This document shows, piece after piece, positions 20,352 through 59,065 of a stretch of DNA of 64,000 bases. The notes beneath the pieces are model-generated. The model was given only the letters and a program-made list of their open reading frames with translations, was not told the origin of the DNA and ran no database searches. The position numbers and the translations under genes were made by a program. How positions within the stretch are numbered: the stretch's first letter is position 1; the number at the start of each line of letters is the position of its first letter. Location: contig JACKFA010000004.1 of the NCBI GenBank assembly GCA_020632715.1, forward strand, positions 758,190-822,189, given 5' to 3'. The DNA is from Deltaproteobacteria bacterium. Its GTDB lineage: Bacteria > Myxococcota_A > UBA9042 > PHBI01.

Positions 20352-20546
20352 GATTCTCAGACCCCCGGAGAGCCGCCTCTCCAGCGGCTCAATTGAACGA
20401 GCGCTCGGAAAAATCCGGATACACCCTTGCCAATCTCGGCAGCGCCGTGCAGGGTCGAAAAAGCCGAGGCGGAATCGGACATTGCGGAGTCCGTTCGCGC
20501 GCCGCGGCAACCCCCGACAACTCATCGAGACGCACGCGAGGCTCTC

Positions 20547-35822: not shown

Positions 35823-38800
35823 ATGTCCCGCCTAGCCCTCGTCGCCGCCTGCGCCGCGCTCGTCGCCTGCGGCGACGCCGCCGCCCCCGGCGTCGGTAGC
35901 CCCGGCGTCACCGTGGCCATCGCGCCCCTCACCCTCGACGGCGTCGTCGACGCCGAGTACCGCGTGCGCGTCGCGGCCGGCGGCGAGGTCGTCTGGGAGC
36001 GCGTCCTGACCTCGGGCGCCTACGGCGACGGCGCGGGCGGCGTCAGCTATGTGGGCCCCTGCGACGCGTCCTTCGCGACGAACGACGTCACGGTCACGCT
36101 CCTGTCGCTCCGCGACGCCACGGGCCCGCTCGCGGCCGGCTCGTGGAGCCCCCCGCCGCCGGCGACCAAGGCGGCGCCGTGCTCGCCGAGCGCCGACACG
36201 CGCGTCGACTTCGACCTGACCGTCGCCCGGGCCGCCCGCCAGGGCTTCTTCGACGTCGCGGTCGAGCTCGACGACGTCTTCTGCTCGGCCAAGCTCGACT
36301 GCGGCGCGACGACCGCCGTCGCCGACGACCTGCTGCTCCTGCAGGACCCGATCACCGGCGAGCGCGCCACCACCGCCGTGCTCGGCTTCGCGTGCACGGC
36401 CGGCCCGGAGAGCGACGCCGCGACGACGCTCTACCTCGACGACGTCGTCATCCGCTGCGACGGCCGCCCGGACACGGTCGTCGCCGTCGGCGCGCCCGGC
36501 CGGGTCGACCTCGGGACCCTCCCGAGCGCGAACCCCGATGGCTACTTGTTCGACGCCGTCGTCTACGCCGGCGAGCAAGCCAGCGGCGGCGTCGTGTACT
36601 GGAACGTCGCCCTCGGGCTCGACCGCGCCGCGTTCGCGGCGAGCGGCGCCTGCTCGCTCTCGACCGTCGGCACGGCGTCGAGCGGCCCGCTCGAGGGCGG
36701 CGCGACCCCGGCTGGCGCGACGTGGCCGGTCATCGTCTGGGACGTGCCGCTCAGCGACGCGAGCGGGCGCGTGTGCACGGAGCACGAGGTCGGCGATCCC
36801 GGCGGGCGCGTGGTCATCGACTACCGCGGCCCCGACGTCCCCGAGGTCTTCGACCGCGGCCGTGACGCCGGTGGGCCGGTCGGTGGCGGCGGCGGCGGCG
36901 GCGAGAGCGGCGGGAACATCGCGTTCGTGCCCGAGGCCGGCCCGAAGACCGTCGGCGCGGGCCTCGAGGCGCCGCTGACCGTCCTCCTGCCGGCCCCGGT
37001 CGACGCGCCCGAGGGCGCGACGATCACCATCGCGAGCGGCGATCCCTCGCGCCTCCTGCTCGCGACGAGCGGCGCCACCGCCGGCGCCGCGAGCGTCGAG
37101 CTCACGTACGCGAACGGGATCCAGTCGCACACGCTCTGGATCCAGGGCGTCCCGGGGGCGGCCGGCGACGTCGTCATCACGGCGACGCGCGGCGGCGAGA
37201 CGAGCTGGCAGAGCGTGTCCGTCGTGGCGCCGATGCTCCACCTCGAGGCGCTCGCGGGCGACCGCCGCGCGACCGCCGTCGACGCCATCCCGGACGACAC
37301 GTTCGTCGTGCAGACGGGGATCCCGAACCCCGAGGCCGTCATCGGCTTCAGCGTGCAGCGCGTGAGCGCCGCCGCCGGCCCGCTCACGGTGACGATCGCG
37401 TCCTCCGACCCCGCGGTGGCCACCGTCGCGACCGCGTCCGGCGCCGCCGCGACACAGACGCGCACCATCGCGCCGAACGTCTACACGACGCCGCTCCCCC
37501 TCGCGTCGGGCGGCCTCGCGGCGCGCTTCCCGGCGCCCCCGGTGGCGGGGACCACGACCATCACGGCGTCGGCGCCCGGCTTCACCACGGCGACGCAGGC
37601 GCTGACGGTGTCCGTCGTCGCGACCTACACCTACTTCGACGACGACCTCCCGACGCTGCTCGGCGGCGGGCTCCAGGTCGGGATCCCCATCGGGCTCAGC
37701 GACCCCTCCCACGGCGGGCGCGTCGCCACCGTCACCGTGAGCGACCCGTCGATCGCCGTCGTGTCTTCGAGCCGCACGGGCGCCGGTGGCGCGTCGGTCG
37801 ACCTGACCTACGTGAACGGCGACAACCTCGAGACGGTGTGGTTCCAGGGCGTCCCGGGCGCGACCGGGACGGTCGACGTGCTCGTGACGTGCCCCGGGTT
37901 CGCCGACTCGTGGGGCACCATCGCGGTGCGGCCGGGGACGATGGACATCGAGGTGCTCGCCCCGTACCAGACGGTGGCGTCGACGCAGACGCCGGCGGAC
38001 GACCCGTTCCGCGTGCGCTTCGGCGTGCTCGACGCGGCCGGGACGACCTACACGCCGCAGGAGGTGTCGGGGGCGGTCGCGCCGCTGGCGGTGACGTTCG
38101 CGCTGAGCGGCGCCGCGGTGGGCGAGCTCTACACGGCGACGGAGCGCGGGAGCGCCGTGGTGCTCGCCATCCCCGCGGGGACGATCGCCACTGGCAACAC
38201 CACGGGGACGGGGGGCGTGGCGCTCGACTTCTTCGGGCCGCCGCCCGTGCAGGGGACGGTCACGGTGAGCGCGACGGCGCCGGGCTTCGCGGCCACGGCG
38301 CTCTCGTCGCAGACCGTGCAGGTCAGCGTCTCCGCGGCCACGATCACCTTCACGACGATCCCGGCGAAGGTCGGCGCGAGCTTCTCCGAGACGCTCATCT
38401 ACAACCTGAGCGCCGCCCCCACGGGCGGGTCGACGGTCGTCCACTTCGAGGTGAGCGACTTCTCGAAGGCGGCCGTCGCGCCGCTCGACGCGTCGATCGG
38501 CGGCGAGACGCTCGACGTGGTCGTCAACAGCGGCGGCTACCGCAACATCCGGATCCACGGGCGGCGCGGCGCGACCGGCTCGGTCACGATCACGGCGACG
38601 AGCCCGGGCTACCTGCCGGCGTCGACCACGGTCCCCATCGTGCAGGGCTACATCGCCATCACCGGCGGCTGGAACGCCTCGGTGACGACGACCGCGGGCA
38701 CCCCGATCGCGGACTACAGGTTCTCCGTCGGGGTCGGCTACTCGAACACCGGCACGGGCATCAACACGAACGCCGTCATCGCCGGCACGGACGCGCCGCT

Positions 38801-39029
38801 GCCCGTCACGGTCACGCGCTCGGGCGCGGCGGTCTTCGACGTCGCGACCTCGGGGGCCGCCGGCGTCGTCGCCACCTACACCCAGGCGGCCGGGACGACG
38901 ACGGTCAGCAACGTCGCGCGCCTCGTCTACAAGAACCCGCCCGTGGCGGGCACGGGCACGGTGACGGTGACGGCGCCCGGCTTCATCTCGACGCTCGCGA
39001 CGAAGACGCGCCAGGTCATCGTGAACTGA
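35823..39029 (+). CDS. Large lipoprotein: conserved Cys-containing ~340 aa N-terminal domain (paralog of the 55154 gene), Gly-rich linker, then ~6 Big_2-like Ig-fold repeats.
   Basis: MSRLALVAACAALVAC lipobox. N-domain motifs YVGPCDAS, QGFFDVAV, FCSAKLDC, YWNVALGL. Repeated units such as IASGDPS..LLATSG..AASVELTY. Confidence 0.8.
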   Translation: MSRLALVAACAALVACGDAAAPGVGSPGVTVAIAPLTLDGVVDAEYRVRVAAGGEVVWERVLTSGAYGDGAGGVSYVGPCDASFATNDVTVTLLSLRDATGPLAAGSWSPPPPATKAAPCSPSADTRVDFDLTVARAARQGFFDVAVELDDVFCSAKLDCGATTAVADDLLLLQDPITGERATTAVLGFACTAGPESDAATTLYLDDVVIRCDGRPDTVVAVGAPGRVDLGTLPSANPDGYLFDAVVYAGEQASGGVVYWNVALGLDRAAFAASGACSLSTVGTASSGPLEGGATPAGATWPVIVWDVPLSDASGRVCTEHEVGDPGGRVVIDYRGPDVPEVFDRGRDAGGPVGGGGGGGESGGNIAFVPEAGPKTVGAGLEAPLTVLLPAPVDAPEGATITIASGDPSRLLLATSGATAGAASVELTYANGIQSHTLWIQGVPGAAGDVVITATRGGETSWQSVSVVAPMLHLEALAGDRRATAVDAIPDDTFVVQTGIPNPEAVIGFSVQRVSAAAGPLTVTIASSDPAVATVATASGAAATQTRTIAPNVYTTPLPLASGGLAARFPAPPVAGTTTITASAPGFTTATQALTVSVVATYTYFDDDLPTLLGGGLQVGIPIGLSDPSHGGRVATVTVSDPSIAVVSSSRTGAGGASVDLTYVNGDNLETVWFQGVPGATGTVDVLVTCPGFADSWGTIAVRPGTMDIEVLAPYQTVASTQTPADDPFRVRFGVLDAAGTTYTPQEVSGAVAPLAVTFALSGAAVGELYTATERGSAVVLAIPAGTIATGNTTGTGGVALDFFGPPPVQGTVTVSATAPGFAATALSSQTVQVSVSAATITFTTIPAKVGASFSETLIYNLSAAPTGGSTVVHFEVSDFSKAAVAPLDASIGGETLDVVVNSGGYRNIRIHGRRGATGSVTITATSPGYLPASTTVPIVQGYIAITGGWNASVTTTAGTPIADYRFSVGVGYSNTGTGINTNAVIAGTDAPLPVTVTRSGAAVFDVATSGAAGVVATYTQAAGTTTVSNVARLVYKNPPVAGTGTVTVTAPGFISTLATKTRQVIVN

Positions 39030-39173
39030 CCAGGCCGCTCCCGAACAACGGCGCGCTCACGGCACTTTTTTGGCTCTCGCGAACGATCGGTTTGCCGCGG
39101 TGGACCGTACCGCATGCGGCGGCTAGGATCGCCCAAACCCCCAAAACCATCCGCAGCGAGACGCGAGGCCCCC

Positions 39174-42100
39174 ATGCGCGGTTTCCTGCTCCGGCGTGCC
39201 CTCCTGGGCGCGCTCCTCCTGTCGTTCGTCGGGTGCGGTGACGGCACGACCGGCGCCGACACCGTCGAGCCGACCGACACGGCGACCCCGGACTCGGCCG
39301 ACACCGCGGACACCGCGGACACGGCCGACACCGCGGACACAGCGGACACGGCCGACACCGCGGACACGGCGGACACGGCCGACACGGCGGACACGGCGGA
39401 CACGGCGGACACGGCGGACACCGCCGACACGGCGGACACCGCCGACACGACCGACACCGCCGACACAGCCGACACAGCCGACTCCGACTCGGCTGACACC
39501 GCCGACACCGCGGACACCGGCCCCGACGTCGTCCTCGCCGACACCACGGCCCCGACGGTCACGCTCATCGCGCCCACCGAAGGCGCCACCCTCACCGGCG
39601 GCCGCGTCGTCGTCACGGGCGTCGTCTCCGACCCGCAGGGCGCCGATGATGGCGCCCCGACCGGCGTCGTCGCCCTCACCGTCGCCGGCGTCGCCGTCAC
39701 GCCGGCCCCCGATGGCGCCTTCGGCCTCACCCTCACGAGCGTCGTCCCCGGCCCGCTCGAGCTCCTCGTCCGCGCCACGGACGGGGCCGGCAACGTCGGC
39801 GAAGCCAGCGTCTCCGTCACGGTCGCCCGCGAGCCGCTCGCCCTCTCCGCCTCGCCCGCGTCGCTCTCCCTCGACGACCTCGGCCAGAGCGCCGTCCTCG
39901 ACGTCGCCCGTCACTACGCCGGCGGCGCCGCCGACCTCCCCGACCCGACCTCGCTCACGTTCGAGAGCTCGGCCCCGGCCGTCGCGGCCGTCACCCCAGG
40001 CGGCGTCGTCACCGCGCTCGCCCCTGGCACCGCGACCGTCACCGCGAGTGACGGCGCCCTCTCCGTCGCCGTCCCGGTCACCGTGGCCGCCGACACCACG
40101 GCGCCCGCGCCGCCCCTCGTCGAGACCTGGGTCCCCGTCACGAGCCTCGACACCCAGGTCTGGATGGGCCGCGCCGAGCCCGGCGCCTCCCTCGCCGTCA
40201 GCGGCCTCGCCGCGCCGCTCACCGGGGCCGTCGGCGCCGACGGCCGCTTCCTCCTCACGCTCCCGCTCCCGCCGCGATCCGCGCTCACCCTCGGCATCAC
40301 CGCCACCGACGCCGCCGGCAACACCTCCGAGCCCGTCAGCTACCCGATCGTCCAGGACCCGGAGGCCGTCGACGCAGGCGCCCTCCACCTCGCCGACGGC
40401 GACAACCAACGCGGCGTCGCGGGCCAGGCCCTCATGCGCCCCCTCCGCGTCCGCGCCACCACTCCCGCGGGGGACGCCCTCGCCGGCGCGACCGTCACCT
40501 TCACCCTCGTCGGCGGCGACGCCGCGCTGGCCGCCTCGGCCGCCGACCACGGCGCCGACACCCTCGTCGCCACCGCCGACGCCGCCGGCTATGCGCGCGC
40601 CTGGCTCATCCCGGGCGCGCCCGGCGATCTGCGCGTCCACGCCGCGCTCACCGGCGACGCGGGGCTCCCGGTCGTCTTCCGCGCGGTGGCCGCGTCCCCC
40701 CTCGTCGACGGCCGCACGCGCGTCTCCGGCGTCGTCCTCGACGACGCCATGGGCGCCGTCCAGGCCCCCGTCTCGCTCCTCCTCGACGGCGTGACCTACT
40801 TCCCGGACGGCGGCGTCACGAGCGACGACCACGGCCGCTTCACGATCACCTGGCCCGTGGCCGACCCGTCGGCGGTCCCCGCGACAGGCTTCCTCCTCGT
40901 CGACGGCTACAACGCGCTGAACGGCACCTTCGGCCGGCTCACCTTCGAGGTCGACGTCGTCCCGGGCATCGACAACGCCGTCGTGCGCCCGTTCTTCGTG
41001 CCCGTCATCCCCGACGGCGTCGCGCCCGCCCTCGACGGCGACGGCCGCCTCAGCGCGGACCTCGTGCTCACCCACGCGCTCGGCCCCGGCCGCGAGCCCG
41101 CGCGGGCCATCCTCGCCGCTGGCACGAAGATCACCTTCCCGGACGGGATCCCCGCCGCCCGCCGCCGCCTCTCCCTCCTCACGATCCCCATGGGCCGCGC
41201 CCCGATGCCGCTCACCGACGGCCTCTACTCGCGCACGATCCTCTCGCTCCAGCCCGGCGGCGCTCTCTACGACCCGCCCGTCGTCCTCGTCGTGCCGAAC
41301 CTCGACGGCGCAGCCCCCGGCGAGCAGGTCCCGCAGCTCATCTTCGACCACGACACGCACCGCTACGTCGTGAACGGCACGGCCACCGTCTCGGCCGACG
41401 GCCGCACGCTGCGCACCGACCCCGGGAGCGGGATCCGCGTCGGCGCGTGGCACGCCATCCCGCCGAGCCGCCCCGCCGAGCGCGGCGTCGCCCAGGTCAC
41501 GGTGGACGCGGGCGACGAGGGCGCCGACGACTGCGTCTGCGTGAGCGCCAACGGCACGACGGCGCCGTGCGCGCCGTGCTCCTCGACCACCGTCGCGTCC
41601 GCCCCGGGGCTCCCGCGCGCGCCCGGCGTCCCGACCTGCGCGACGACCGACGTCTCCGTGCCCGCAGACGGCGGCCCCCAGAGCGTCACCGCGTCGTGCG
41701 AGCGCAAGCGTTGCCGGGTCGACATCGACTACGTCGCGACCGGCGGCGTCGTGGTGCGGCGGGAGACCGCGCTCACCGCGCGCGTCGGGCAGGTCATCGG
41801 CGTCGGCGCGTCCGCGACGATCCCCGGCGTCGCCGAGACCGCGACGTGGCGCGTCGTTCGCGTCGGCGGCGCGGGCGCCGAGCCGATCGCCACGAGCCCC
41901 GCCACGGGTCCGCGCACCGGCTTCATCCCGACCGTGGCGGGCACCTACGAGGTCAGCGTCTCCGCCGCGGTCTGCGTCGGAGCCAGCGCCACGATCGAGG
42001 TCCTCGGCGACTGCTGTACGGAGGGGCTCATCACGGCGTGCGGCGCGGGTCTGAGGACGCTCCCGAACGGCGACGAGGTCGTGACCGCGCCCGCCAGGAT

Positions 42101-45100
42101 CGGCGCCGGCGGGCCGCTCTACCTCGAGGCGGCTCGCGAGGTGACGTGCATGCACTCCCTGGGCCGGGTGACGGGCGCCGGGATCGTCGCGATCAGCGCC
42201 CCTGGCGCGAGACGGGTCCTCGTCCGCGCGCTCGCGGCCTACGAGATCGAGGGCAGCACGGGCGCCCTGGCGATGCCGCTCCCGCCGATCCTCGCCGGCC
42301 GGAGCCGGGAGATGACGAGCCTCGGCACGAGCGCGCCGATCGTCGGGCGCGACGAGGTGCGCTTCACCGAGCCGACCTGGCGCTTCGCGCTCCGCCTGCC
42401 CGGCGGCGAGCGCGTCGTCTACCAGCCGGCGGTCTACCACGCAGGCCCGAGCGGCTTCTTCGGCGACCGCTTCGTCCGCGAGGGGGCGCCGCTCAGCGCC
42501 GCCGCGACGGGGCCCGTCCGCGTCCTCCGGTGGGAGGTCCGCGACGACGGGATCGGAACGCTCGAGACGACGCTCCAGGTGCGCCTCGGCGCGCTCGCGG
42601 ACGGGCTGACGTTCGACCTCGACGGGCGCCTCGGCAGCGCCGGCCTCTTCCTGTCGGTCCCCGAGCAGCGCCTCCCGGACAAGGCGCCCCCGAGCCGTGG
42701 CTGGCCCGATCCGTCGCCCTCGGACCCGCCGGGCGTCGTCTACTTCGTGAAGCTCGAGGGCGACGTCGAGAACCCGACCTGGTTCTTCGACGAGGAGGTC
42801 CCGCCCGCGCGCGTCATCCGGCTCAGGTCGATGATCGACCTCGGGCCGACCTTCCCGAGCCGCTGCGGGCCGATGACCCCGTTCGCCGCGAGCTGCTCGG
42901 GCACCATGGAGCTCCTGCCGTTGAAGCTCCGCGCCGCGTGCCCCTTGACCGTGATGAGCCTGTCGGCGCCGACCTGCCCGCGCCCGAACGAGGTGGGCGA
43001 CTGGGCCGTCGGGGAGGTCGCGCTCCGCTACGAGGGCGGCCGCGCCACGCTCGACGGGCGCGCCGTGGCGAGGACCGACGATCTCGAGCTCGTCCGCCGC
43101 GAGCTCATGCTGACGGCACCGATCGGGCTCAGCGGCGTCCTCGAGCGCCGCGGCGGGGTCCTCTCGCTCGGCGCCGAGCTCCGAGGGGTCCCGGTCAAGG
43201 TCAACAACGACCTCCACCTCCAGGGCGGGATCAGCGCGTTCTCCTATCGCTCCGAGCCCGTCGCCGCCTCGCTCAGGATCTCGTCGTCCGAGGCGCCGCT
43301 CGGCGCCCAGTTCGAGCGGGACCTCGACGGCTACCAGGCGTCGCTCTGCCTCCCGAACGGCACCACGCGCCCCGTGTGCGCGAACCCGTACGCCGACGAC
43401 GCGCGCAAGGCGCCCGTCAGCGCGGCGGGGACCGTCGAGATCCAGCCCGGCGACGCCGACCCGACGCCGGGCGGCGGCGTCTCCATCACCGTCGACCCGC
43501 CCGCGGACGACGACGAGGACGACCCGATCGAGCTCGGCGACGGGGAGTGCATGGACTACCCCGACGAGTCGCGCTGCCTCGCGTACGGCCTCGCCGGGCC
43601 GCGGACGGCCATCGTCCAGGACGCCCCCGCCGGGACCTACAAGCCACCGGCGACGGGCCCGCTCTCGACCGTCACGGTCGCGCCCGCGCACCCGGCCCCC
43701 GACGCGAGCGCCGCGACCGTCGACGCCGCCGCGGACGACGTCGGCGGCTACCTCGTCACCGTGGACCCGCCTCCGGGCGCGATCGTCGTCGACCTCGGCT
43801 TCCGCGCGGGCGCGTTCGGGCCGGTCGTCACCACGGTCCCCGGCGACGCGGCCGGCTCGGTTCGTTTCACGCCGACCCTCGAGCGCCTCGCGGCGGTCCC
43901 CCAGACGTCCGACCAGAACGGCACCGCGCGCGCGAGCGTCCAGCCGTGCGCGACGTTCGTGCGCGCCGGCGGCGGCACCCCGTCCGTGACCACCTGCGGC
44001 CCGTTCCGCGAGGTGAAGGCGCCCCGCGGCGCCGCCCCGAGCCCCCGCTACCACACCGTCGAGCGCGGCCCCACCGGTCGCGTCGAGGCCGCCGCGACGG
44101 TGCCCTCGGGAGACGGCGCGCCGTTCTCGCTCACCGTGCTCGCGCCCGCGACGGGCGTCGTCACCGTCGACGTGCCCGGCGTCGGGCCCGTCGTGGTCGA
44201 CCTGCGCGTCTCGGACGGCGGCGCGAGCGGCGAGGCGACCCTCCGCTACGGCCTCGACGCCGCGGCCGGCCGCCGGATCGACGCCGCCGCGTACGCGCGC
44301 GCCACGTCGCGCCCGCTCGAGGCGCTGTCGCCGCTCTTCGCGCTCGAGACGACCGCCGCGAGCGACGGGAGCCACGGCTACGCCTACGTGCTCCCGGACG
44401 ACCTCCCGACCGGGATCTACGACGAGGGGCAGAACCCCTACGCGACCGGCGACCTCGTGGCGATCATCTCGCCGCCGCCGACGCGGGCGCGGCTCGGCGC
44501 GGCCTGGAGCTATCGCCCGGAGCTCCTCATCGGCGCCCCGACGACGGTGACGCTCCGCGTCGCGGAGGGGCCGCCCGGCGTCGCGGTCGCGGACGGGCTC
44601 GTGACGTGGACGCCGCCCGCGACGTGGCCCGTCGGGCCCGTGACCATCGCGATCGTGGCCCGAACGGCCGGCGGCGCCGAGGCGCGGCAGACGTTCGAGC
44701 TCGCCGTGAGCGCGGCCGAGACGGCGCCGGCCATCGTGCGCCCGGCGCCCGTCCTCGTCGGGGCGACCGACGGCACGGCGTTCCGCGTCGACGGCGCCAC
44801 GGCGGTCACGGCGGCCGTCGTCGGCGGGCCGACGGGCGCGCAGCGCGTCGCGGTCGGCGTCCTCGCGGCGGACCAGGCGCCGAGCCTCCCGGGGGTGATG
44901 CCGCGCTACGTGCTCGACGCGGACGCCATCCGCGTCGCGACGACCGGGCTCGAGGCCCCGCGGATCGAGATCACGGCCGAGAACGACGCAGGCGCGACCA
45001 CGCTGGTCGCCCAGGTGCTCGTCCTCGATCGCGACGGGGACGGGCTCCGCGACGAGTACGAGCGCCTCGTCGGGACCGACCCCGACGCCGCGACCGACCC

Positions 45101-48100
45101 GGACACCGACACCGACGCGGACGGCCTCACCATCGCCGAGGAGCAGGCGCTCAGGACCCGCGACGACCTCCGCGACAGCGACGGCGACGGCCTCGACGAC
45201 CCTGACGAGGCCGCGCTCGGCGCGAGCCCGCGCCTCTCCGACAGCGACGGGGACGGCCTCGACGACGGCGCGGAGGTCCTGACGCACCTCACCCTGCCGG
45301 ACGTCGCGGACAGCGACGGCGACGGCGTCTCCGACGGCGACGAGGTCATCGGCGGCACGGACCCCACGGTCGCCCTCGACGAGGACGACGACCAGGCCCC
45401 GGACGACCTCGAGCGGCTCGTCCTCCACACCGACCCGACGAACCCCGACACCGACGGGGACACGCTCACGGACGGCGCCGAGGTCGAGCTCGGCACGGAC
45501 CCGCTGGTCCCGGACACCGACGGCGACGGGATCCTCGACGCCGACGAGGCCGCGCTCGGGCGCGACGCCACCGTCGCCGAGGAGGAGCCGCCCGCGCTCG
45601 TCGAGCCGGCGCTCCTGACCGGCACCTCGGCCGCGCAGGTGCTGCTCCCCTTCGAGGCGCGCAGCTTCCCGATCACCGTCGCGGTGGATCGCGACGGCGA
45701 CGGCCTCCCCGACGCGTTCGAGGCGCTCTACGGGCTCGACCCCGACGACCCCGCCGACGCGGCGAGCGACACCGACACCGACGGCCTCACGGCGCGCGAG
45801 GAGCTCGGCCTCGGGACCGATCCGACGCTCACCGACACCGACGACGACGGGGTCGACGACGGGCAGGAGCGCGCCGACGGGACCGACCCGAACGACCCGG
45901 ACGACTTCGACGGCGGCGGCGCCGTCGTCTCGCTCGACGTCGCGCCGGCGAGCGCCGTCGCCGTCTACCACGCGTACTTCGGCCCGCGCCGGCTCCAGCT
46001 CGCCGTGGCCGGCGTCAAGGCGGCCGGCACGCGCGTGGACCTGACGTCACCCGCCGTGGGGACGGTCTACAGCGTGGCTCCGGCCGGCGTGGGGGTCTTC
46101 GACGCCGATGGCGCCTTCGTCCCCGCCGCGCCCGCGAGCGACGACCCCGTGGACGCCGTGATCACCGTGACGGCCCGCGGCGCGACGGCCGACGTGCCCG
46201 TGCGGATCGCGCGCTTCACCCCGCGCGACGTCGGCGTGGTCGCGACGCCAGGCGCGGGCGGGCCGATCGCCGCCGTCCCGGGCGCGGACGCCGTCGTGGT
46301 CGCGGTCGGTGGCCAGGTGCAGGTCGTCGACGTCGCCGATCCGGCCACCCCGCGCGCGCTCGCCCTGACGACCGTCACCGCCGCTCCGATCGCGGCGCTC
46401 GAGCCCTTCGGCGACCGCGTGCTCGCCGTCGCCGGGACCGAGCTCGTCTCGCTCGCGGTGGATCCGGCGGGCGAGGTGACCGTCGCCGCGCGCGCGACGC
46501 TGCCCGCCGCCGGTCGCGGGGTCGCGGCGACCGCGTCGGGTGGCGCGCCGGCGGCGTTCGTCGCGACCGCGAGCGGCGCCGTCGAGGTGCTGCTCGACCG
46601 CGGCGAGGTCGCCGCGACCTGGTTTTCCGGCCAGGACCTCACCGCCGTCGCCGCGGTGCGCGAGCGCGTCGTGGGTGCGACCGCCTCGGGGGCCCTCCGC
46701 GTGCTCCTCCGGGGGCCGAACACCACGGTCGGCGCGGCCACGACGGGCCGCCCGACGACGGCGTTGCTCCACCTCGGCGGCGAGCTCGTCACCAGCTCCC
46801 GCGGGCAGGGGCTCGATCGCGTGCGCCTCGACGTGGTGCCGCCCGCGGTGCTCGCCCAGAGCGACGCGGCGTTCCTCCCGACCGGCCCCGTGGCGCGCTA
46901 CCGCGACGTCGTGCTCGCCGGCGCCGAGGACTTCGGCCAGGCGATGACCTACCACGGGCTCGGCCTCCCGGGCGCGCTGCCGTTCCTCGGCGGCCACGGC
47001 TACGAGCTCGTGCCGGACGGCTCGACCCGGGGCGTCGCGGTGCTGGGGCCGCTCCACGCCGCGGTGGTCGCCGACGAGCTCGACGAGCGCTGGGTCGTCG
47101 TGGCCGAGCACGACCTCTTGACCGACCTCGCCGGCGTCCCGCCGACCGTGGCCCTCCTCGAGCCGCGCCCCGGCGACGCCTTCGACGAGGGCAAGCGCGT
47201 GCTCGTCCGCGCCCGCGCGGTCGACGACGTCGCGGTCGCGCGCGTGACCTTCCTCGTGGACGGGGCGCCCGCGGCGACGCTCACGGCGCCTCCCTGGGAG
47301 GCGCGCGTGCGGCTCCCGGAGGTCGACGCGGACGGCAGCGCGACGATCGCCATCGTCGCGGCCGACGTCGGCGGTAACAGCGCCGAGGCCAGCGTCGTCG
47401 TGGGCGTGCGCGCCGTCACCGACGACACGGACGCGCCGCTCGTCGCGTTCGGCGCCCCGCGCGACGGCCTCACCGTGCCCGCGAGCTCGGTCGTGCCCGT
47501 CCGCGTCAACGTCGTCGACGCCTCGGCCATCCGCGCGGTCGTCCTGAAGGTGGACGGCGTCGAGCGCGCGGTCCTGACGGACGGCCCGCCCTGGGTCGCG
47601 AGCGTGCCGACCCCGGTCCAGCCGGCGTCGGCGACCGGTCGCTACCCGCTCCGCGCCGAGGTGACCGACGTCGCCGGGAACGTCGGCGTCGCCGAGGTCG
47701 AGCTCGTCGACGCGGGCATCGACCTCGTCGGCCTCGGCGTCACCGACATCGCCGCGGGCGACGGGGCGTACGACGGCGCCACCATCCTCATCCGCGGCGG
47801 GACGGTCGCGATCGACGGCGCCCACTCCTTCGCGCGCGTGGTCGTCGGCGCGGGGGGCGTCCTCACGCACCCGCCGACGGGCCTCTCCGGCGCGGAGCCC
47901 GGCCTCGACCTCACCGCCACCGCCATCGTCGTCGAGGAAGGCGGCGCCATCGACGTGAGCGGCAAGGGGTACCGCGGCGGCTGCGGCTCGGGCGGCGCGG
48001 GCTGCCCCGCCGGCACCTCGGGCCGCACGGTCGGCAACGTCGACGGCGTCCCCGGCACCGCGTCCGCCTCGCACGGCGGCGTCGGGCGCTCGACGGCCAC

Positions 48101-48203
48101 CGCGGCGGCTGCGACCTATGGCGAGCTGCTCGCGCCCACGGCGCTCGGCGCGGGCGGCGGCGCCGGCCTCGGCGCGGCGGCGCCGGCGGCGGGCGCGTGC
48201 ACC
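39174..48203 (+). CDS. Giant surface lipoprotein, intact part (>3000 aa). Contains (ADT)n linker, Ig-like/Big_2-like domains, Cys-rich segments, thrombospondin-type-3-like Ca-binding repeats, and the first beta-helix-like ~1 kb repeat. The frame continues, disrupted, to ~51398.
   Basis: MRGFLLRRALLGALLLSFVGC. Frame 0 is coherent to ~48200. Beyond that the sense is recoverable only by frame switching. Confidence 0.75.
39280..39525 (+). repeat. ~27 tandem copies of a 9-bp unit gacacSgcS encoding (ADT)n.
   Basis: Visible directly in the sequence; translates to DTADTADTADT…. Confidence 0.85.
45020..45900 (+). repeat. Thrombospondin type 3-like Ca-binding repeats (DxDxDGxxDxxE) inside the giant lipoprotein.
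   Basis: DRDGDGLRDEYE, DSDGDGLDDPDE, DSDGDGVSDGDE, DTDGDGILDADE and similar. Confidence 0.7.
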
Positions 48204-51200
48204 TCGTCGCGGACACCCTCACGCTCGAGGCGCCGTGCGCGCCAACGGCGAGGACCTCGGCGCCATCGGCGTGAGCGGCCACGGCGGCGCCGGCGGGAGC
48301 GTGCTCCTCGACGTCAGGACGCTCACGGGCAGCGGCGCCATCGACGCGCGCGGCGGCGACGGCGCCAGCGCCTCAGGCGCCGAGCACGGCGGCGGCGGCG
48401 GCCGGATCGCCGTGATCGCGGACGACGCCGCCGGCTACACCGGGCTCGCGAGCGCCGCGGGCGGCGCCGGGAGCGCCACGGCGACGGCGGGGCTCCCGGG
48501 CGGCGCGGGCTCGGTCGCCCTGTCCTTCGGAGGCGCCGCTCCCCTCGTCGTCATCGACGACGGCGGGGCCAGCGACGGCGCCGAGGGCGACGTCCTCGGC
48601 GACGCGGACCTCGCCGGCGCGGACGTCGTCGTGCGCGGATCGGCGCGCGTCCGGCTCGCGCGCCCGCTGTCGGTCGGCTCGCTGCGCCTCGAGGACCAGG
48701 CGCGGCTCGCGCACGGCGCGGCGACCGCGAGCGACGACGCGGTGGGCGTGGACATCACGGTGACCGGCACGCTCACCATCGGGAGCGACGCCGCCATCGA
48801 CGTGAGCGGGCGCGGGTACCGCCAGGGTCGCACCTTCGGGAACAGCGCCCAGAGCGGCCTCATCGCCGGCGGGCGCGGTGGCGCCTCGCACGGCGGGCGC
48901 GGCGGCGGCAGCTCGGGGGTCGTCTTCGGCGACCCGATGGCGCCGGCGACGCTCGGGGCCGGCGGCGGCTCCTTCGGCGGCTCCGACTGCGCGGGCGCCG
49001 GCGGCGGCCGCGTGCGGATCGTCGCGGGGCGCTCGCGCTCGACGGCGCCATCGTCGCGTCCGGCGCGCCGGGCGACGAGACGTGCCAGACCGGCGGCGGC
49101 GCCGGGGCTCCATCGACGTCACCGTCGGGCGCGCTCCTGGGCGATGGCGCGATCGCCGCGAACGGCGGCGCGGGCACCGTCGGGGCCTCGCGTCCGGCGG
49201 CGGCGGCAGGCGCGTCGCGGTCCGCTACGAAGACGCGAGCGCCTTCGACCTCGCGGCCATCAGCGCCTTCGGCGGGGCGGGGGCCGCGAACGGCGGCCCC
49301 GGCACGGTCCTCCTCGCGGAGGCCGGCGAGGCCCCGGTGCTGCGGGTCGCGAGCGGCGGGCTCACGGCCGAGCACGCGGCGCCGCCGCGCGTCCAGCTCG
49401 GCGCCTGGAAGCTCACGACGAGCGGGCTCACGGCGACCTCGTTCAAGGTGCAGGGCTCGAACCTCTGGGTCGGCGACTTCCTCGCCGGGACGCGCGTCGG
49501 GTTCGCGGGCACCGCCGAGACGTGGCTCGTGACGGGGGTCACGGCGGCCACGACGACGGTGCTCGTCGAGGACCGGACGCCCGACCTCTCGGCGGCCGGT
49601 CTCGTCCAGAACGCCGCTGCCATCGGGATCGTCGACCTCGGGGCGGTCCTCGACGTCGACGGCGCCTCGGTCGAGCTCGACGGCGAGTGGCGCCTCCTGG
49701 GCCTTCGCCTCGCGAACGGCGCCCGCCTCGCGCACGCGCCGACCGCGACCACGGTGGGGCGCGCGCCCTCGGGGCTCGAGCTCGCGGTCGAGGGGGACGT
49801 CGACATCGACGCCACCTCGGCGATCGACGTGAGCGGCCGCGGCTTCCTCGACGCGCGCACGCTCGGCGACTCGACCGACGGCAACCTCGCCGCGGGCGAT
49901 CGGACGGGCGGCTCGCACGGCGGCGTCGGCGGCGGCGCCGATCCCGGGATCCCCTACGGCGACGTGACGTTCCCGCTCGCGCCCGGCGCCGGCGGCGGCA
50001 AGGGGCGCTTCGGCGCCGTGGCCGGCGGCTACGGCGGTGGGCGCGTGCGGCTCGCGGCGACCGGCGACATCGCCCTCGACGGGCTCATCGCCGCGAACGG
50101 CGCGGACGCGCCAGTCACGGGCCAGCGCGACGGGGCGGCGGCGCAGGCGGCGCCATCGTCGTCGAGGCGGCGACCTCGCGGGCGCAGGAACGGTCAGCGC
50201 GAGCGGCGGGGCGGGCGGCCGGGTACGGCGGGCGATCCGGGCGGCGGCGGCAGCGGCGGGCGCGTCGCGCTCGTGTACGACGACGCGGCGGGCTTCGATC
50301 TCGACGGCGTCGCGGTCCTCGGGGGCTCGGTGGCGCCGGCGCAGGTGCTGCCGGGACCGTCGCGCGCCTCCCGCGCGGCGACGTCGGCCGGATCGTGGTC
50401 GACGACGGCGGGCTCACCGCCACGCTCGAGACGACGCTGGGCGTCCAGATCGGCCGCGCGCGCGTCACCTCGACGCCGCAGGCCCAGAGCCTCGCGCTGA
50501 ACGGCGGCCAGCCGCGCTTCCACCCGGGCTCGCTCGCGGGGCTCGAGCTCCGCTGCGAGGGCGTCGCGGGCAGCTTCACGGTCGTCGGCAACACGACGAG
50601 CGCGATCCAGACGGACCCGGCCGACGGCGACCTCACCGGCCTCCTCGCGAGCGGCGCCCGGTGCTTCGCGGACCGCGCTCTCGACGCCGTGATCGAGGTC
50701 ACGGGCGGCGCGCGTCTCGCCCTCGACGATCGCTTCACGATCGCGGGGCTCGTCGTCGACGGCGGCGGCGTCGTGACCCACGCCGCGACCGGCGTCGGGA
50801 CGAGCTTCGCCGACGGGCGGCTCGACCTCGTCGTCACGGGGGACGTCGTGGTCGCGGGCGACGGCGCCATCGACGTGAGCGCGCGCGGCTACGCCGGCGG
50901 CGGCGTGGGCGTCGGCGCGAGCGGGAAGACCGTCGGCAACGTCAACGGCTCGGCAGCCGGCGCGGGCGGGTCCCACGCGGGCGTCGGCGGCGGCGCGGGC
51001 GCGGCCGCGGTCTACGGTGACGGCGCGGCCCCCGTCACGGTGGGTGGCGGCGGCGGTCAGGGCGCGGTCGCGGCGGAGTCGGGCGGCCGCGGCGGGGGTG
51101 CCGTGCGCCTGACGGTCGGCGGCGAGCTCGCGCTCGACGGCGCCATCCGCGCGGACGGCGCGGCGGCCCTGGGCGCGGGCGGCGGCGGCGCCGGCGGCTC

Positions 51201-51544: not shown

Positions 51545-52552
51545 ATGCGCCACTTCATCAGCACCGAGGATTGGACCCAGGCCGAGCTGCAGGCCCTGAT
51601 CGACGAGGCGCGCCTCCTCAAGGCGGCCCCGTTCCAGCCGCTGCTCCAGAACAAGTCCATCGCCCTCGTCTTCTTCAACCCCTCGCTCCGCACGCGCAGC
51701 TCCTTCGAGCTCGGCATGTGGCAGCTCGGCGGCCACGCCCTCGTCCTCGAGCCCGGCAAGTCCGCCTGGCCGCTCGAGTTCAAGGAGGGCGTCGTCATGG
51801 ACGGCGAGGCCGAGGAGCACGTCGCCGAGGCCGCCCGCGTGCTCGCCCGCTACTGCGACATCATCGCCGTGCGCGCCTTCCCGAAGTTCGTCGACTGGGG
51901 CTTCGACCGCACAGACCCCGTCATCAAGACCTTCGCGAAGTACTCGACGGTGCCGGTCATCAACATGGAGACCATCACCCACCCGTGCCAGGAGCTCGCC
52001 CACATGATGGCGCTCCAGGAGCGGATGGGCGACGTCCGGAAGAAGAAGTACGTCATGACCTGGACGTACCACCCGAAGGGCCTGAACACGGCCGTCGCCA
52101 ACTCCGGGCTCCTCATCAGCACGAAGTTCGGCATGGACGTGACGCTCCTCTGCCCCGAGGAGGCCTACCACCTCGACGAGCGCTACATGAGCGCCGCCAA
52201 GGCCAACGCCGAGGCGTCGGGCGGCAGCTTCCAGGTGAGCTACGACATCGACGAGGCCTACGCCGGCGCCGACGTCGTCTACGCGAAGAGCTGGGGCGCC
52301 TTGCCGTACTTCGGCAACTGGGACGCCGAGAAGCCGATGCGCGACAAGTACAAGCACTTCATCGTCGACGAGCGGAAGATGGCGCTCACGAACAACGCCA
52401 TCTTCAGCCACTGCCTCCCGTGCCGGCGCAACATCAAGGTCACCGACGCCGTCATCGACTCGCCGCAGTCGATGGTCATCGACGAGGCCGAGAACCGCCT
52501 GCACGCGCAGAAGGCGCTGATGCACCAGCTCGCGACGACCTACCGCGGATGA
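51545..52552 (+). CDS. argF: Ornithine carbamoyltransferase family protein, possibly N-acetylornithine carbamoyltransferase (ArgF').
   Basis: Carbamoyl-phosphate motif SLRTR and HCLP motif. ~335 aa. GGGAGG RBS. Stop overlaps the next start (ATGA). Confidence 0.8.
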   Translation: MRHFISTEDWTQAELQALIDEARLLKAAPFQPLLQNKSIALVFFNPSLRTRSSFELGMWQLGGHALVLEPGKSAWPLEFKEGVVMDGEAEEHVAEAARVLARYCDIIAVRAFPKFVDWGFDRTDPVIKTFAKYSTVPVINMETITHPCQELAHMMALQERMGDVRKKKYVMTWTYHPKGLNTAVANSGLLISTKFGMDVTLLCPEEAYHLDERYMSAAKANAEASGGSFQVSYDIDEAYAGADVVYAKSWGALPYFGNWDAEKPMRDKYKHFIVDERKMALTNNAIFSHCLPCRRNIKVTDAVIDSPQSMVIDEAENRLHAQKALMHQLATTYRG

Positions 52553-55153: not shown

Positions 55154-58100
55154 ATGCGCATCACCTCCTCGCTCGCCTCCCTCACCGGCCTGGCTCTCGC
55201 GCTCCTCGGCGCGGGCTGCGCCGGCGACGCCCCGACCCCCGGCACGCCGCTCGGCGGCGCGCCGCTGACGATCAACGTGGCGCCCTTGACCCTCGAGGGC
55301 GTCGCGGCGGCCGACTACCGGCTCACCGTCAAGAACGGCGCGCAAGAGGTCGTCTGGACGAAGGACGTCGCGTCGACCCAGTACGGCGACGGGCAGGGGA
55401 GCCTCGCGTACGTCGGCACGTGCGACGCGTCGTCGCCCGCGAACACCGTGGAGCTCACGATCCTCGCGCTCCGCGACGCCGAGGGCGCGGCGATCACGGC
55501 GTGGTCGAACCCGACGGCCGACGCGCCGCTCGTGAAGCCCCAGACCTGCGAGCCGAACGCCGACAACGCCGTCACCTTCGACGTGACCGTCGCGCGCAGC
55601 GCCGTGCAGGGCTTCTTCGACGTGGCCGTCACCTTCTCGGACCTCTTCTGCTCGGCCAAGATCGACTGCCGCGACGCCTTCCTCGACGGCCCCGCCGGCC
55701 GCGGCCCGACCGCCATCCTCGCGCTCGCGTGCACGGGCGACCCGGACGGCGGCACGCCGACCACGCTCTACCTGAACGACATCGTCGTGACCTGCACGGG
55801 GGAGGGCTACGGCGCGGTCGTCGACCCGTCCGGCGGCCCCGGCAACGTCACGCCCGCGTCGAACCCGGGGCCGACGCTCTATGGCGCGGCCGTCTACCGC
55901 GGCGACGAGCAGCTCGCCGGCAAGGCCTACTGGAACGTGGCGCTCGGGCTCTCGGCGCCGGCGCTCGCGAACGCCGGCACCTGCACGCTCACGACGCGCG
56001 CGACCGCCGCGAAGGGCGCGCTCGCGAACGGCGAGATCGCCGCGGGTACGGTCTACCCGTACATCGACGTCAGCGCGCCGATCCTCGCGTCGGGCGCCCT
56101 CTGCGGGAACACGGGGCTCGACACGAGCGCCGCGATCAGCACCCGCTACACCACGCCCGCGGGCGCCGCGCTCCCCTTCGCGCACGCGTACGAGCAAGGC
56201 GCCGCCGGCGTCATCGGCGGCGAGGGCGGCGGCGGCAGCGGCAGCGGCAACGCGCCGACGGACGCGCTCCTCGCGAGCGACACGCCGCTCGCGCGGGCGG
56301 CGCTGGTCGCCGGCACGCTCGCGACGCCGGGCGCGGCGCCCGCGCTCGAGGCCGCGGGGGCGGTGACGTACGGCGCGTCGACCCCGCTCACGCCGGCGGC
56401 CGGCGGGATCACGGCCACAGCCGGGAGCGCGCCCGCGGTCGACGCGGCGGCGGTCGTCGACACGACGGCGCCCTTCACGGCGACCCTCTCGGTGTCGGCG
56501 ACGTTCGCGTCGGGCACCCCGCGGTGCGCGTTCGAGGCGCCGTACGACGGCGTCGCCTGTGTGCTCGACGGGAGCGGGCAGGGCACGGCGACCCTCGCGA
56601 GCACGGCGCTCGTCCCCGGCGAGACGCTCGTGGCCGACGTCTTCGCGCAGGAGACCCCCGCGGACGTCGCGCAGACCAACGCCCTCGCGACGAGCGTGCT
56701 CGCCTACCGGCAGGTGGCGAGCTTCAACGACGTGCCGAGCGACGAGGTGTACGCGTCGCTGGTCGCGCCGGACGGCAAGGTCTACTTCAACGCGCGCGCG
56801 TCGACGACGGAGACCCGCGAGCTCTTCGTCTACGACCCGAGCGCGCCCGGGAGCGGCGTGACGCGGGTCGCCGACGTGCTGCCCGGCGCGAACGACGGCG
56901 CGACCCCGCTCGCGGTCACGCCGGGCTACGTCTACTTCGTCGCGAGCGCGACGGCGGGGGGCACGAACCACCTGTACATCCACGACATCGCCGCCGGGAC
57001 GACGCGGGAGCTGCTCGACATCGACGACGTCGCCGCGAACGCGGTCGTGCTGCCGTGGGGCGACGAGGTGATCTTCGTGCGCGACGGCTCCGACTTCGTG
57101 TTCCACTACGATCCCGTGGGCGACACGCTGACCCCGGTGTCGCTCACCTACGTCAACGCGATCTACGGCAGCGATCAGCGCGGCATCGCGCTCGTGAACG
57201 GCGTCGCGTACTTCATCGCGTCCGGCACGGACGGGTCGTGGTCCGGGAACTACCTGTGGGCGTACGACCTCGCCTCGGGCGTGCTGACTCAGAAGCTCGA
57301 CGCCCACGCGCCGATGAACCTCGTGGTCCGCGGCGGCACGCTCTACACGTCGTACTCGACCACGCCGACGTCGCCGGACGTCTACTCGACGCGCTTCTTC
57401 TTCAGGAACGCGGGCTCCGGGTGGGTGCGCCTCTCGGACGGGTTCGTCGCGATCCAGTGCTCCGGCAACGACGCCGGCTTCGTCGAGGACGGCACGAACC
57501 TCTACGTCGCCGGCGCCCTGCCCGGGACCGCGAGCTCGTCGACCCCGTGCGGGACCCCGGCGATCGCGCGCATCGACACGACGCAGACGACCGGCAACGT
57601 CACGCTCCTCGGCGGCGCGACGGGCGTCGGCATCAACAGCCTCAAGGGGTCGCTGGTCGCCGGCGGCTGGCTCTATTACGTCAACTCCTCCTACCCGCAG
57701 GAGCTGCGCGCGGTCGACACGACCACGCTCCAGGCGGCGTCGCTCGGCGCGTCCCCGGCGAGCCAGACGGGGCCATTCGCCGTCGGTGGGCGCGTGTTCG
57801 ACGTCGCCGACTCGTCGCGCCCGCGGCTCCGCGAGCTCACCCCGTCCGGCGGGACGGTCGCGCTGAGCGACGTCGCGACGACGGTCGGCGCCGCCCCGAA
57901 CGCGGGCGCGGTCGCGTACTTCGCGGCGCTCGGGAACCTGCGCGAGTACGACTACGCGACGCTCCCGGCGACGAGCTCGGTCGCGGCGTCCGTGCAGGCG
58001 ACCGGCAGCGACGATCCGCTGTTCCTCACGGCCTTCGCGGGGGACCTCCACCTCGGCGCGCGCTACGACGGCGACGTCGTCCACACGGCGACCTACCGCG

Positions 58101-59065
58101 TCGCCTCGGCCGACGGCGTGGTCACGCCGCTCCCGACGAGCAGCGGCTACGCGCTCGGCGTCGGGCAGGAGGGGGTCTACTACCGCACGGCGAGCGGGCC
58201 CGCGCGCTGGGACGGCGTGACGATGACGCCGCTCGGCCTCGGCGCGTACGACCTCGTGAGCGTCGCGACCGACGGCGTGACCACGTGGGCGCTGACCGCG
58301 GACGCAGGCCAATACTACCTCAGCGCCTTCGACGAGCTCACGGGGGCGCTCACGCCGATCGTCGCGTTCGCCGCCACCGAGCAGCCGTCGTCGCTCCTCG
58401 TCGCGGGCGGGAAGGTGTTCGTCGTCGTCAACGACAACGACCTCTTCACCGCGAGCCTCTGGGTCTACACCCCGGCGGCGCCGACGCCGACGTTCACGCA
58501 GGTCACGACGTCGGGCGGGGCGATCTCCTGGGACCAGGTGCAGTCGCCGAGGGTCGGCCCGGACGGGGCCATCTACTTCGCGGACTACGACGACCACGGC
58601 GGCGCCTCGATCTTCGCGACGGACGGCGCCACGGTGAGGGAGGTCGTCCCGTCGACCGACTTCGAGTACCTCGGCCTCCAGTCGGTGGTGGGCGCCGGCG
58701 CGTTCACCTACGTCGGCGTCTCGAACGGCATCTACCGCTGGGATGGCGCGAGCGCGACGCTCATCGCGCCGGGCGCGAGCAGCGCGGCGCTCGAGAGCTA
58801 CGGTGGGCACCTGTATGCGCTCGTGTCCCAGATCCAGGCCTCGGCGGACCCCGGCGCGTGGACGCGGCGCGGCCTCTACCGCCTCGGCGACCAGGGCTGG
58901 GAGCTGCTCGTGGAGGCGCCGGCGTACGGCGGCGTCGCGGCGATGGCCGTCGCGGGCGACCTCCTCTACCTGCGCCTCCCCGACGCGGCCGGGAACGCGA
59001 AGCTCTACGCCCTCTGCGACGCGGCGACCGGCTGCGACCCGACGACGGTGCTCTCGGCGCCGTGA
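55154..59065 (+). CDS. Large lipoprotein paralogous in its N-terminal ~340 aa domain to the 35823 gene; C-terminal beta-propeller-like repeats.
   Basis: MRITSSLASLTGLALALLGAGC lipobox. Shared N-domain motifs YVGTCDAS, QGFFDVAV, FCSAKIDC, YWNVALGL. Confidence 0.8.
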   Translation: MRITSSLASLTGLALALLGAGCAGDAPTPGTPLGGAPLTINVAPLTLEGVAAADYRLTVKNGAQEVVWTKDVASTQYGDGQGSLAYVGTCDASSPANTVELTILALRDAEGAAITAWSNPTADAPLVKPQTCEPNADNAVTFDVTVARSAVQGFFDVAVTFSDLFCSAKIDCRDAFLDGPAGRGPTAILALACTGDPDGGTPTTLYLNDIVVTCTGEGYGAVVDPSGGPGNVTPASNPGPTLYGAAVYRGDEQLAGKAYWNVALGLSAPALANAGTCTLTTRATAAKGALANGEIAAGTVYPYIDVSAPILASGALCGNTGLDTSAAISTRYTTPAGAALPFAHAYEQGAAGVIGGEGGGGSGSGNAPTDALLASDTPLARAALVAGTLATPGAAPALEAAGAVTYGASTPLTPAAGGITATAGSAPAVDAAAVVDTTAPFTATLSVSATFASGTPRCAFEAPYDGVACVLDGSGQGTATLASTALVPGETLVADVFAQETPADVAQTNALATSVLAYRQVASFNDVPSDEVYASLVAPDGKVYFNARASTTETRELFVYDPSAPGSGVTRVADVLPGANDGATPLAVTPGYVYFVASATAGGTNHLYIHDIAAGTTRELLDIDDVAANAVVLPWGDEVIFVRDGSDFVFHYDPVGDTLTPVSLTYVNAIYGSDQRGIALVNGVAYFIASGTDGSWSGNYLWAYDLASGVLTQKLDAHAPMNLVVRGGTLYTSYSTTPTSPDVYSTRFFFRNAGSGWVRLSDGFVAIQCSGNDAGFVEDGTNLYVAGALPGTASSSTPCGTPAIARIDTTQTTGNVTLLGGATGVGINSLKGSLVAGGWLYYVNSSYPQELRAVDTTTLQAASLGASPASQTGPFAVGGRVFDVADSSRPRLRELTPSGGTVALSDVATTVGAAPNAGAVAYFAALGNLREYDYATLPATSSVAASVQATGSDDPLFLTAFAGDLHLGARYDGDVVHTATYRVASADGVVTPLPTSSGYALGVGQEGVYYRTASGPARWDGVTMTPLGLGAYDLVSVATDGVTTWALTADAGQYYLSAFDELTGALTPIVAFAATEQPSSLLVAGGKVFVVVNDNDLFTASLWVYTPAAPTPTFTQVTTSGGAISWDQVQSPRVGPDGAIYFADYDDHGGASIFATDGATVREVVPSTDFEYLGLQSVVGAGAFTYVGVSNGIYRWDGASATLIAPGASSAALESYGGHLYALVSQIQASADPGAWTRRGLYRLGDQGWELLVEAPAYGGVAAMAVAGDLLYLRLPDAAGNAKLYALCDAATGCDPTTVLSAP

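Follow-up and report, generated by a model that had tools for sequence, protein, structure and literature searches.

Modular lipoproteins carrying a family-defining N-terminal domain are a known kind of protein. The SusE/SusF-type surface lipoproteins of Bacteroides possess an anchor-proximal, N-terminal immunoglobulin-like (Ig-like) domain that is followed by carbohydrate-binding modules. Closest in logic to the proteins considered here are the SitA lipoprotein toxins, i.e., polymorphic toxins of Myxococcus of which there are six families, each possessing a ~375-amino-acid (aa) N-terminal 'escort domain' (PMC8546572, PMC5562445). Considered here are two genes, A and B, found within a 64,000-nucleotide stretch (the window) of contig JACKFA010000004.1, which belongs to a metagenome-assembled genome (MAG) of a Deltaproteobacteria bacterium (GCA_020632715.1). 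Each gene encodes a large lipoprotein and the two lipoproteins share an N-terminal domain, here simply the N-domain. That domain defines a lipoprotein family which is very large, had not been described before, and occurs in uncultured Myxococcota, and it is this family, along with its expansion, that is new.

The likeness to SitA is one of description, consisting of a lipobox, a family-defining N-terminal domain of similar size, and modular C-termini that are unrelated to one another. The family thereby shows the lipoprotein signal, conserved N-terminal domain, and variable C-terminus by which SitA proteins are defined (PMC8546572). A and B nevertheless possess neither the C-terminal toxin or nuclease domain of SitA proteins nor their downstream immunity gene (sitI). 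With SusE/SusF the likeness would be that of a lipid-anchored, membrane-proximal beta-sandwich which holds exchangeable binding modules off of the membrane. Here, however, the N-domain is three times larger, contains eight cysteines, appears to be a single compact unit, and is one for which neither sequence similarity nor a close fold relationship to the Bacteroides domain could be detected; the phylum is also another one, and there is no operon of the polysaccharide-utilization-locus type.

A cysteine-rich domain shared by two lipoproteins

Gene A (35823..39029) is an open reading frame (ORF) that encodes a 1068-aa lipoprotein, consisting of the N-domain, a glycine linker, and then Ig-like repeats. 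Gene B (55154..59065) encodes a 1303-aa lipoprotein consisting of the N-domain, a glycine linker, and blade-like repeats. Both genes, along with all of their features as given below, are on the plus strand, and both display a GC content at third codon positions (GC3) of 0.98. Going by their sequences, both products would qualify as lipoproteins, that is, as having a signal peptide which ends in a lipobox ([LVI][ASTVI][GAS]C), with that of B relaxed. The A signal peptide (35823..35870), which reads MSRLALVAACAALVAC followed by GD, ends with the lipobox LVAC, of which Cys16 is the predicted lipidation site. The B signal peptide (55154..55219), reading MRITSSLASLTGLALALLGAGC followed by AGD, ends instead with GAGC (i.e., ...LALLGAGC followed by A), where it is the Gly at -3 that makes for the relaxed lipobox and Cys22 would be lipidated. 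Protein B is identical to a deposited protein, P0237 (MCB9734752.1, H6745_19380), from a 1.04-Mb contig of a 'Deltaproteobacteria bacterium' MAG. An exact-match look-up of protein A found no identical record, the closest deposited protein being P0246 (KC635_06205), from a near-identical 'Myxococcales bacterium' MAG, which differs by two residues.

Comparison of the two proteins by BLASTP, with composition adjustment, yields a single significant high-scoring segment pair, A18-318 with B25-317, over which 139 of 309 positions are identical (45%; E 2e-61). A paralogous N-terminal domain of ~340 aa had been proposed for these lipoproteins from sequence inspection (the original prediction), and is thus borne out, with an identity slightly higher than the ~40% estimated by eye and far from the background level (<20%) against which that estimate was set. 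All remaining segment pairs have E >2, and the C-terminal regions of A and B are therefore unrelated. Eight cysteines align one-to-one between the two domains, these being A residues 80, 120, 154, 160, 191, 212, 277, and 318 and B residues 90, 132, 166, 172, 193, 214, 277, and 317. The N-domain proper comprises A residues 25-344 (35895..36854), as delimited by the envelope of a family hidden Markov model (HMM), with the BLASTP alignment with B and an AlphaFold2 (AF2) model as further evidence for the domain, and B residues 35-349 (55256..56200; family HMM envelope, E 3e-113). The domain had been located correctly in the original prediction, though with its end placed ~25 codons too far 3', in the Gly linker rather than at A344 and B349, where the family HMM ends. 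The conserved blocks quoted there are all present in both proteins, except that the 'DYR' of one block is EYR in A.

The most conserved part of A is the signature QGFFDVAV...FCSAKLDC (residues 140-160; 36240..36302), for which the R, G, F, D, K, and C columns are invariant. This is seen in B as QGFFDVAV...FCSAKIDC (55607..55669), conserved there as well. The motif R..QGFFD(V/I)AV is the most conserved of the whole family (36240-36263 in A, 55607-55630 in B). Following the domain, as originally described, is a linker, poly-Gly in A (GPVGGGGGGGESGGN, residues 351-365; 36873..36917) and poly-Gly/Ser in B (GGEGGGGSGSGN, residues 355-366; 56216..56251), after which the dissimilar C-termini begin. 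At the DNA level both linkers consist of GGC GGC GGC runs, and it is possible that such runs serve as microhomology for recombination which swaps C-terminal modules. Neither N-terminus, when searched against the whole window by tblastn, revealed a third copy of the domain, the only match being the other copy (E 5e-64 and 2e-63). Nothing obvious by eye is shared between the DNA upstream of A and that upstream of B.

The resemblance between A and B conceivably could be one of chance or composition, that is, two Ala/Gly-rich ORFs which match one another as an artefact of a 75% GC genome. The window indeed is 74.8% GC, and long, spurious ORFs therefore abound within it. An E value of 2e-61 under composition-based statistics, eight aligned and invariant cysteines, more than 1000 homologous clusters, a GC3 of 0.98 in the coding frame, and a confident fold prediction together refute this explanation, leaving it with practically no probability.

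The N-domain falls outside of named families, as had been suspected. Neither the A nor the B N-domain is matched at E<=0.1 by any curated family in Pfam-A, NCBIfam, PHROGs, or PADLOC, scans of 55+7+7 family members yielded no Pfam model covering it, and for most N-domain homologues the precomputed Pfam field is '-'. The literature was also searched for any account of the family, and nothing relevant was returned. As for structure, a profile search of PDB sequences returned 0 matches at E<=10, and a Foldseek search of the N-domain model against the PDB found nothing significant (template modelling score <=0.22). The AF2 model itself, built for the A N-domain from a 115-sequence alignment, is all-beta, with a predicted local distance difference test score (pLDDT) of 89.2 and a predicted template modelling score (pTM) of 0.84, values which imply that the N-domain would behave as one rigid unit. 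The model thus shows the N-domain as a compact, all-beta domain of ~320 aa that is predicted to be built of beta-sandwich elements. Neither internal duplication (hhalign of thirds, probability <=0.3%) nor a relation to A's own Ig-like repeats (hhalign probability 0.1%) was found.

Low-confidence modelling is common at sites which depend on a partner or ion. In the domain model there is only one low-confidence stretch, residues 121-130 (mean pLDDT 56), and this is the invariant RQGFFDVAV loop. An aromatic GFF loop that is invariant and yet poorly modelled hints at a site which may depend on a partner, on an ion, or on conformational change.

Beta-sandwich construction also brings to mind the type V pilins, of the Bacteroidota FimA/Mfa kind, which likewise are made as lipoprotein precursors. 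From that perspective the N-domain would be a subunit which polymerizes by strand exchange following proteolytic removal of an N-terminal strand, and the variable C-termini would be tip adhesins. There is, however, no Pfam FimA or Mfa match, the Foldseek search found nothing significant, and the family consensus displays no conserved Arg or Lys between the lipobox Cys and strand 2. The C-terminus, moreover, is the source of the donor strand in type V pilins but is hypervariable in the N-domain family, and no pilus-type operon is seen. A pilin-like role consequently is judged to be very improbable.

Family size, architecture, and C-terminal modules

An exhaustive profile search was made of 1.84 billion representatives clustered at 50% identity, with a cut-off of E<=1e-3. 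A total of 1283 clusters match the N-domain profile at that cut-off (946 at E<=1e-30), with proteins ranging from 345 to 6283 aa. A word-indexed search with the A domain gave 189 matches, all 'hypothetical protein', from Myxococcota or 'Deltaproteobacteria' MAGs, the best at 60% identity. As A is nearer to these proteins of other genomes (60%) than it is to B (45%), the split between A and B must be old. When 185,579 species genomes were scanned, 359 copies were found to be encoded. Five assemblies account for the best 80 of those 359, with 48 loci from the MAG M1802, 26 from HGW-Deltaproteobacteria-14, four from OW818691.1, which is a closed, 9.29-Mb chromosome, and two as singletons. Copy number is at least 48 for M1802 and at least 26 for HGW-Deltaproteobacteria-14. 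Some loci carry two to three adjacent N-domain copies. A search for more paralogs in the genome, as had been proposed, was also fruitful: the MAG to which the window belongs encodes at least nine, A and B included, with at least seven on other contigs (H6745_21850, _25970, _29280, _25735, _23505, _29965, and MCB9735519), one of them with an RCC1 propeller. The N-domain, that is, is real, ancient, and massively expanded.

A few of the taxonomic labels deserve comment. One contig with a family gene (L078; CAYNFK010000082.1) was deposited as 'uncultured Enterobacteriaceae bacterium', but its GC content is 70.9% and it is almost certainly mis-binned or mislabelled. The 'Betaproteobacteria' label of P0043 and the 'Alphaproteobacteria' label of P0076 may reflect similar mislabelling.

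All of the representatives that were examined have the domain at the N-terminus, its start residue having a median of 27 and a maximum of 70 (n=223 representatives with a full-length domain). A lipobox-like tetrapeptide with Cys is seen in 224 representatives, over which the distance from lipobox Cys to first strand is tightly constrained, at 15-21 aa. Position +2 is occupied by G, A, S, or D, with Lys found there in just one of the 224. The eight cysteines are invariant in 227 of 227 family representatives (the last one in 226 of 227). Two additional, facultative pairs of Cys are gained and lost together (r=0.98 and r=0.93), as would be expected were they to form disulfides in an oxidising compartment. 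The remaining invariant residues concentrate at A120-160, i.e., C, D, and R, then QGFFD, and then FCSAK.DC.

The commonest architecture, at 113 of 223 representatives, is a short form which consists of the domain plus a ~65-aa, Cys-rich tail, and short forms also have the top profile scores. With so many short forms, it is probable that the N-domain does something in its own right and is more than an anchor. In 83 representatives (e.g., P0024, P0093, P0049, and P0050) the tail ends with ...LPxG..L..GCCxxPCC at the extreme C-terminus; A and B both lack such a tail. Presence of the first Cys of the tail correlates with that of a facultative Cys which is located in the N-domain, at the 'K-C-YWN' position (r=0.93). 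This co-occurrence suggests that the short-form tail may be disulfide-linked back onto the N-domain.

The long forms are where the C-terminal diversity lies, with more than 25 kinds of module fused to the N-domain. The original prediction had one conserved module joined to different adhesin-like domains, and this turns out to be so family-wide. Pfam modules were counted over 55 long members: Fibrinogen_C in 16, COLFI in 6, TIG in 4, EGF_CA, Laminin_G_3, and fn3 in 3 each, RCC1 and Dicty_CTDC in 2 each, and FGE-sulfatase, Lcl_C, Big_2, GP38, and PT-HINT in 1 each. Going by these matches, the C-terminal modules would overwhelmingly be extracellular binding modules. These C-termini frequently carry modules of the kind seen in animal extracellular matrix, i.e., Fibrinogen_C, COLFI, EGF_CA, cEGF, and Laminin_G_3 (e.g., P0188, P0158, and P0209). 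One metagenomic protein, P0197 (1408 aa), combines the N-domain with Dicty_CTDC Cys-rich repeats, PT-HINT (866-987), and a ~420-aa C-terminal extension, which by its domain matches is a putative polymorphic-toxin layout on the same lipoprotein handle.

The C-terminus of A (36942..39026) is six Ig-like modules, arranged as three ~236-aa repeats of which each consists of two ~115-aa Ig-like beta-sandwiches. The Ig-like fold that had been ascribed to these repeats thus stands, but not their description as Big_2-like, as Pfam returns 0 families for protein A at E<=0.1 and hence neither Big_1 nor Big_2. In this the C-terminus of A is unlike the Ig-like repeat adhesins (intimin/invasin, SbsC S-layer). 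Its repeats instead form a small family of their own, one that extends to proteins lacking the N-domain, and this is indicative of module shuffling. The C-terminal region of B (56453..58636) contains, by iterated repeat HMM, at least seven ~45-aa repeats, 'G.vYF.a...LW.YD', which are blade-like and resemble ELWxxDGT repeats. A beta-propeller had been proposed here, and repeats of this number and size appear compatible with propeller blades, though the match to TIGR04534 (ELWxxDGT) is weak and below threshold (16 bits vs a cutoff of 65). Only two homologues of the region were found, and a search against PDB sequences gave no match.

Architecture also bears on where these proteins might face. 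It could be that they are self-contained, periplasm-facing envelope lipoproteins, with the N-domain the functional part, binding an envelope component, ligand, or ion via its invariant Asp/Arg/Lys/GFF site, and with C-termini that are accessory rather than displayed at the surface. That the short form is both commonest and highest scoring speaks for this explanation, as does the grouping within one stretch of those polar residues that are invariant (D, R, D, K, and D) or nearly so (E and N). Fibrinogen-like, collagen-C, laminin-G, EGF-Ca, TIG, and phage GP38-type modules nonetheless are implausible in the periplasm, the cell surface is where adhesin-repeat proteins as large as 6283 aa are typically found, and dozens of paralogs per genome would be unusual for a housekeeping envelope factor. 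A strictly periplasmic role is thus viewed as unlikely.

Genomic neighbourhood

Downstream of gene A there are, in order, a giant lipoprotein gene, arginine-biosynthesis genes, B, and a convergent Ser/Thr kinase gene. The giant gene (39114-51200, plus strand), directly downstream of A, has a signal ending ...LSFVGC followed by G and matches Big_6, Big_7, and TSP3_bac. Its 3' part (47900-51200) consists of ~1.03-1.06-kb repeats encoding 'AIDVSG(K/R)GY', and the coding frame as judged by GC3 changes at ~48100, 49100, and 50300. There are either three frameshifts in a gene of >4000 aa, whether by assembly error or as a pseudogene, or else several ORFs. The arginine-biosynthesis genes are one of the aspartate/ornithine carbamoyltransferase family (51545-52552; Pfam OTCace), one of the N-acetylglutamate synthase/kinase type (~52600-53877; Pfam NAT + AA_kinase), and one that is argC-like (53877-54851; Pfam semialdehyde dehydrogenase domains). 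Upstream of A (20427-26162, plus strand) is encoded another giant surface protein, one of ~1900 aa that combines an ice-binding-like adhesive domain (pAdhesive_15) with Dicty_CTDC repeats. Homologues of this protein are found near N-domain genes in six other loci, at varying distance and orientation.

Neighbourhoods were compared over 80 loci. The only recurrent neighbours across these are ubiquitous kinases and giant surface proteins, and the largest neighbour 'cluster' consists of antisense shadow ORFs within the family genes themselves. No immunity-like gene, pilus operon, or transporter is seen among the 80.

These neighbourhoods are of relevance to the possibility that the N-domain is a SitA-like escort domain, i.e., that it is a trafficking module which, starting at the outer membrane, delivers the C-terminus as cargo to another cell or compartment, such as following outer-membrane exchange. 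The phylum is the same, and size and architecture match: a lipoprotein signal, an N-domain of ~330 aa, modular and variable C-termini, and many copies per genome, with P0197 and its PT-HINT pretoxin domain even resembling a polymorphic toxin. A and B, however, bear Ig-like and blade repeats rather than nucleases and have no toxin Pfam match. A toxin-type module is seen in just one of the 55 long members whereas most carry lectin- or adhesin-type modules, and half of the family lacks any cargo. No immunity-like gene is found downstream of A or B, what follows being respectively the giant lipoprotein gene and the convergent kinase gene, and no small neighbour recurs over the 80 loci. The paralogs furthermore are old (40-60% identity), with A and B near-identical between two MAGs, unlike rapidly diversifying barcodes. 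Lastly, and also unlike SitA, the family comes from uncultured lineages only, has no conserved neighbour, and includes 0 Myxococcus among its 120 best named matches. An escort role of the SitA kind accordingly is considered to be quite unlikely.

A proposed lipid-anchored pedestal and what it would mean

The reading favored here, held with confidence that is about evenly balanced, is that the N-domain serves as a pedestal, anchored by lipid and stapled by disulfides, which has a conserved face for interaction and displays variable heads. The protein would be exported by Sec, lipidated on the lipobox Cys (Cys16 of A, Cys22 of B), and transported to the outer membrane, where the family would presumably be located at the surface. 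In the oxidising envelope the eight cysteines would form four disulfides, giving a rigid, membrane-proximal pedestal which a tether of ~18 residues would keep near to the membrane. The invariant face (R..QGFFD...FCSAK.DC) may then touch a partner that is common to all paralogs, candidates being the membrane or lipopolysaccharide, a factor for sorting or export, or a second N-domain. Specific binding would be the task of the exchangeable C-terminal head, found past a flexible linker, that is, six Ig-like modules in A, blade repeats in B, and elsewhere fibrinogen-like, ConA-like, EGF, TIG, or RCC1 modules, or rarely a toxin. By duplication along with shuffling of C-terminal modules the family could have grown to dozens of differently tipped lipoproteins per genome, all on a common handle.

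Several considerations weigh against this pedestal. The 113 of 223 members that are short forms have no adhesin-like module, and as half of the family therefore consists of domain plus tail, a 'pedestal for a head' is not the whole story and the N-domain may itself be the effector. A Gly/Ser/Thr/Pro-rich linker such as those of A and B is found in only 15 of 110 long forms, which tells as well against GGC runs as the microhomology by which modules are swapped. No neighbour conserved over the 80 loci could serve as common partner or export machine. Both the disulfide pairing and the surface placement of the invariant residues are, as yet, predictions, the family has been seen solely in uncultured lineages, with no cultured carrier known, and if the lipid anchor, like that of SitA, is inserted into the outer membrane's inner leaflet, then the heads would be turned toward the periplasm.

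A more specific proposal goes beyond the pedestal and is offered tentatively, as possible though doubtful. The N-domain would be a novel handle for modular outer-membrane lipoproteins, parallel in function to SitA escort domains but unrelated to them, with its GFF/Lys/Asp face engaging a new pathway of surface display or of cell-to-cell delivery. The dozens of lectin-, adhesin-, and occasionally toxin-tipped proteins would then constitute a combinatorial repertoire for recognising prey, kin, or substrate.

Should the pedestal reading be wrong, what remains is one more domain of unknown function, though one which still deserves a Pfam entry. Should it be right, then this would be among the largest lineage-specific expansions of surface proteins in Myxococcota, with more than 1000 clusters and up to ~50 or more copies per genome, and built on a domain which databases do not describe and whose overall fold is without a close solved relative. 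It would provide a module that can be modelled for lipoprotein display in diderms which are neither Bacteroidota nor spirochaetes, as well as a natural scaffold bearing eukaryote-like matrix modules (fibrinogen-C, collagen-C, EGF-Ca, and laminin-G). It would also offer an entry to how uncultured myxobacteria recognise their targets.

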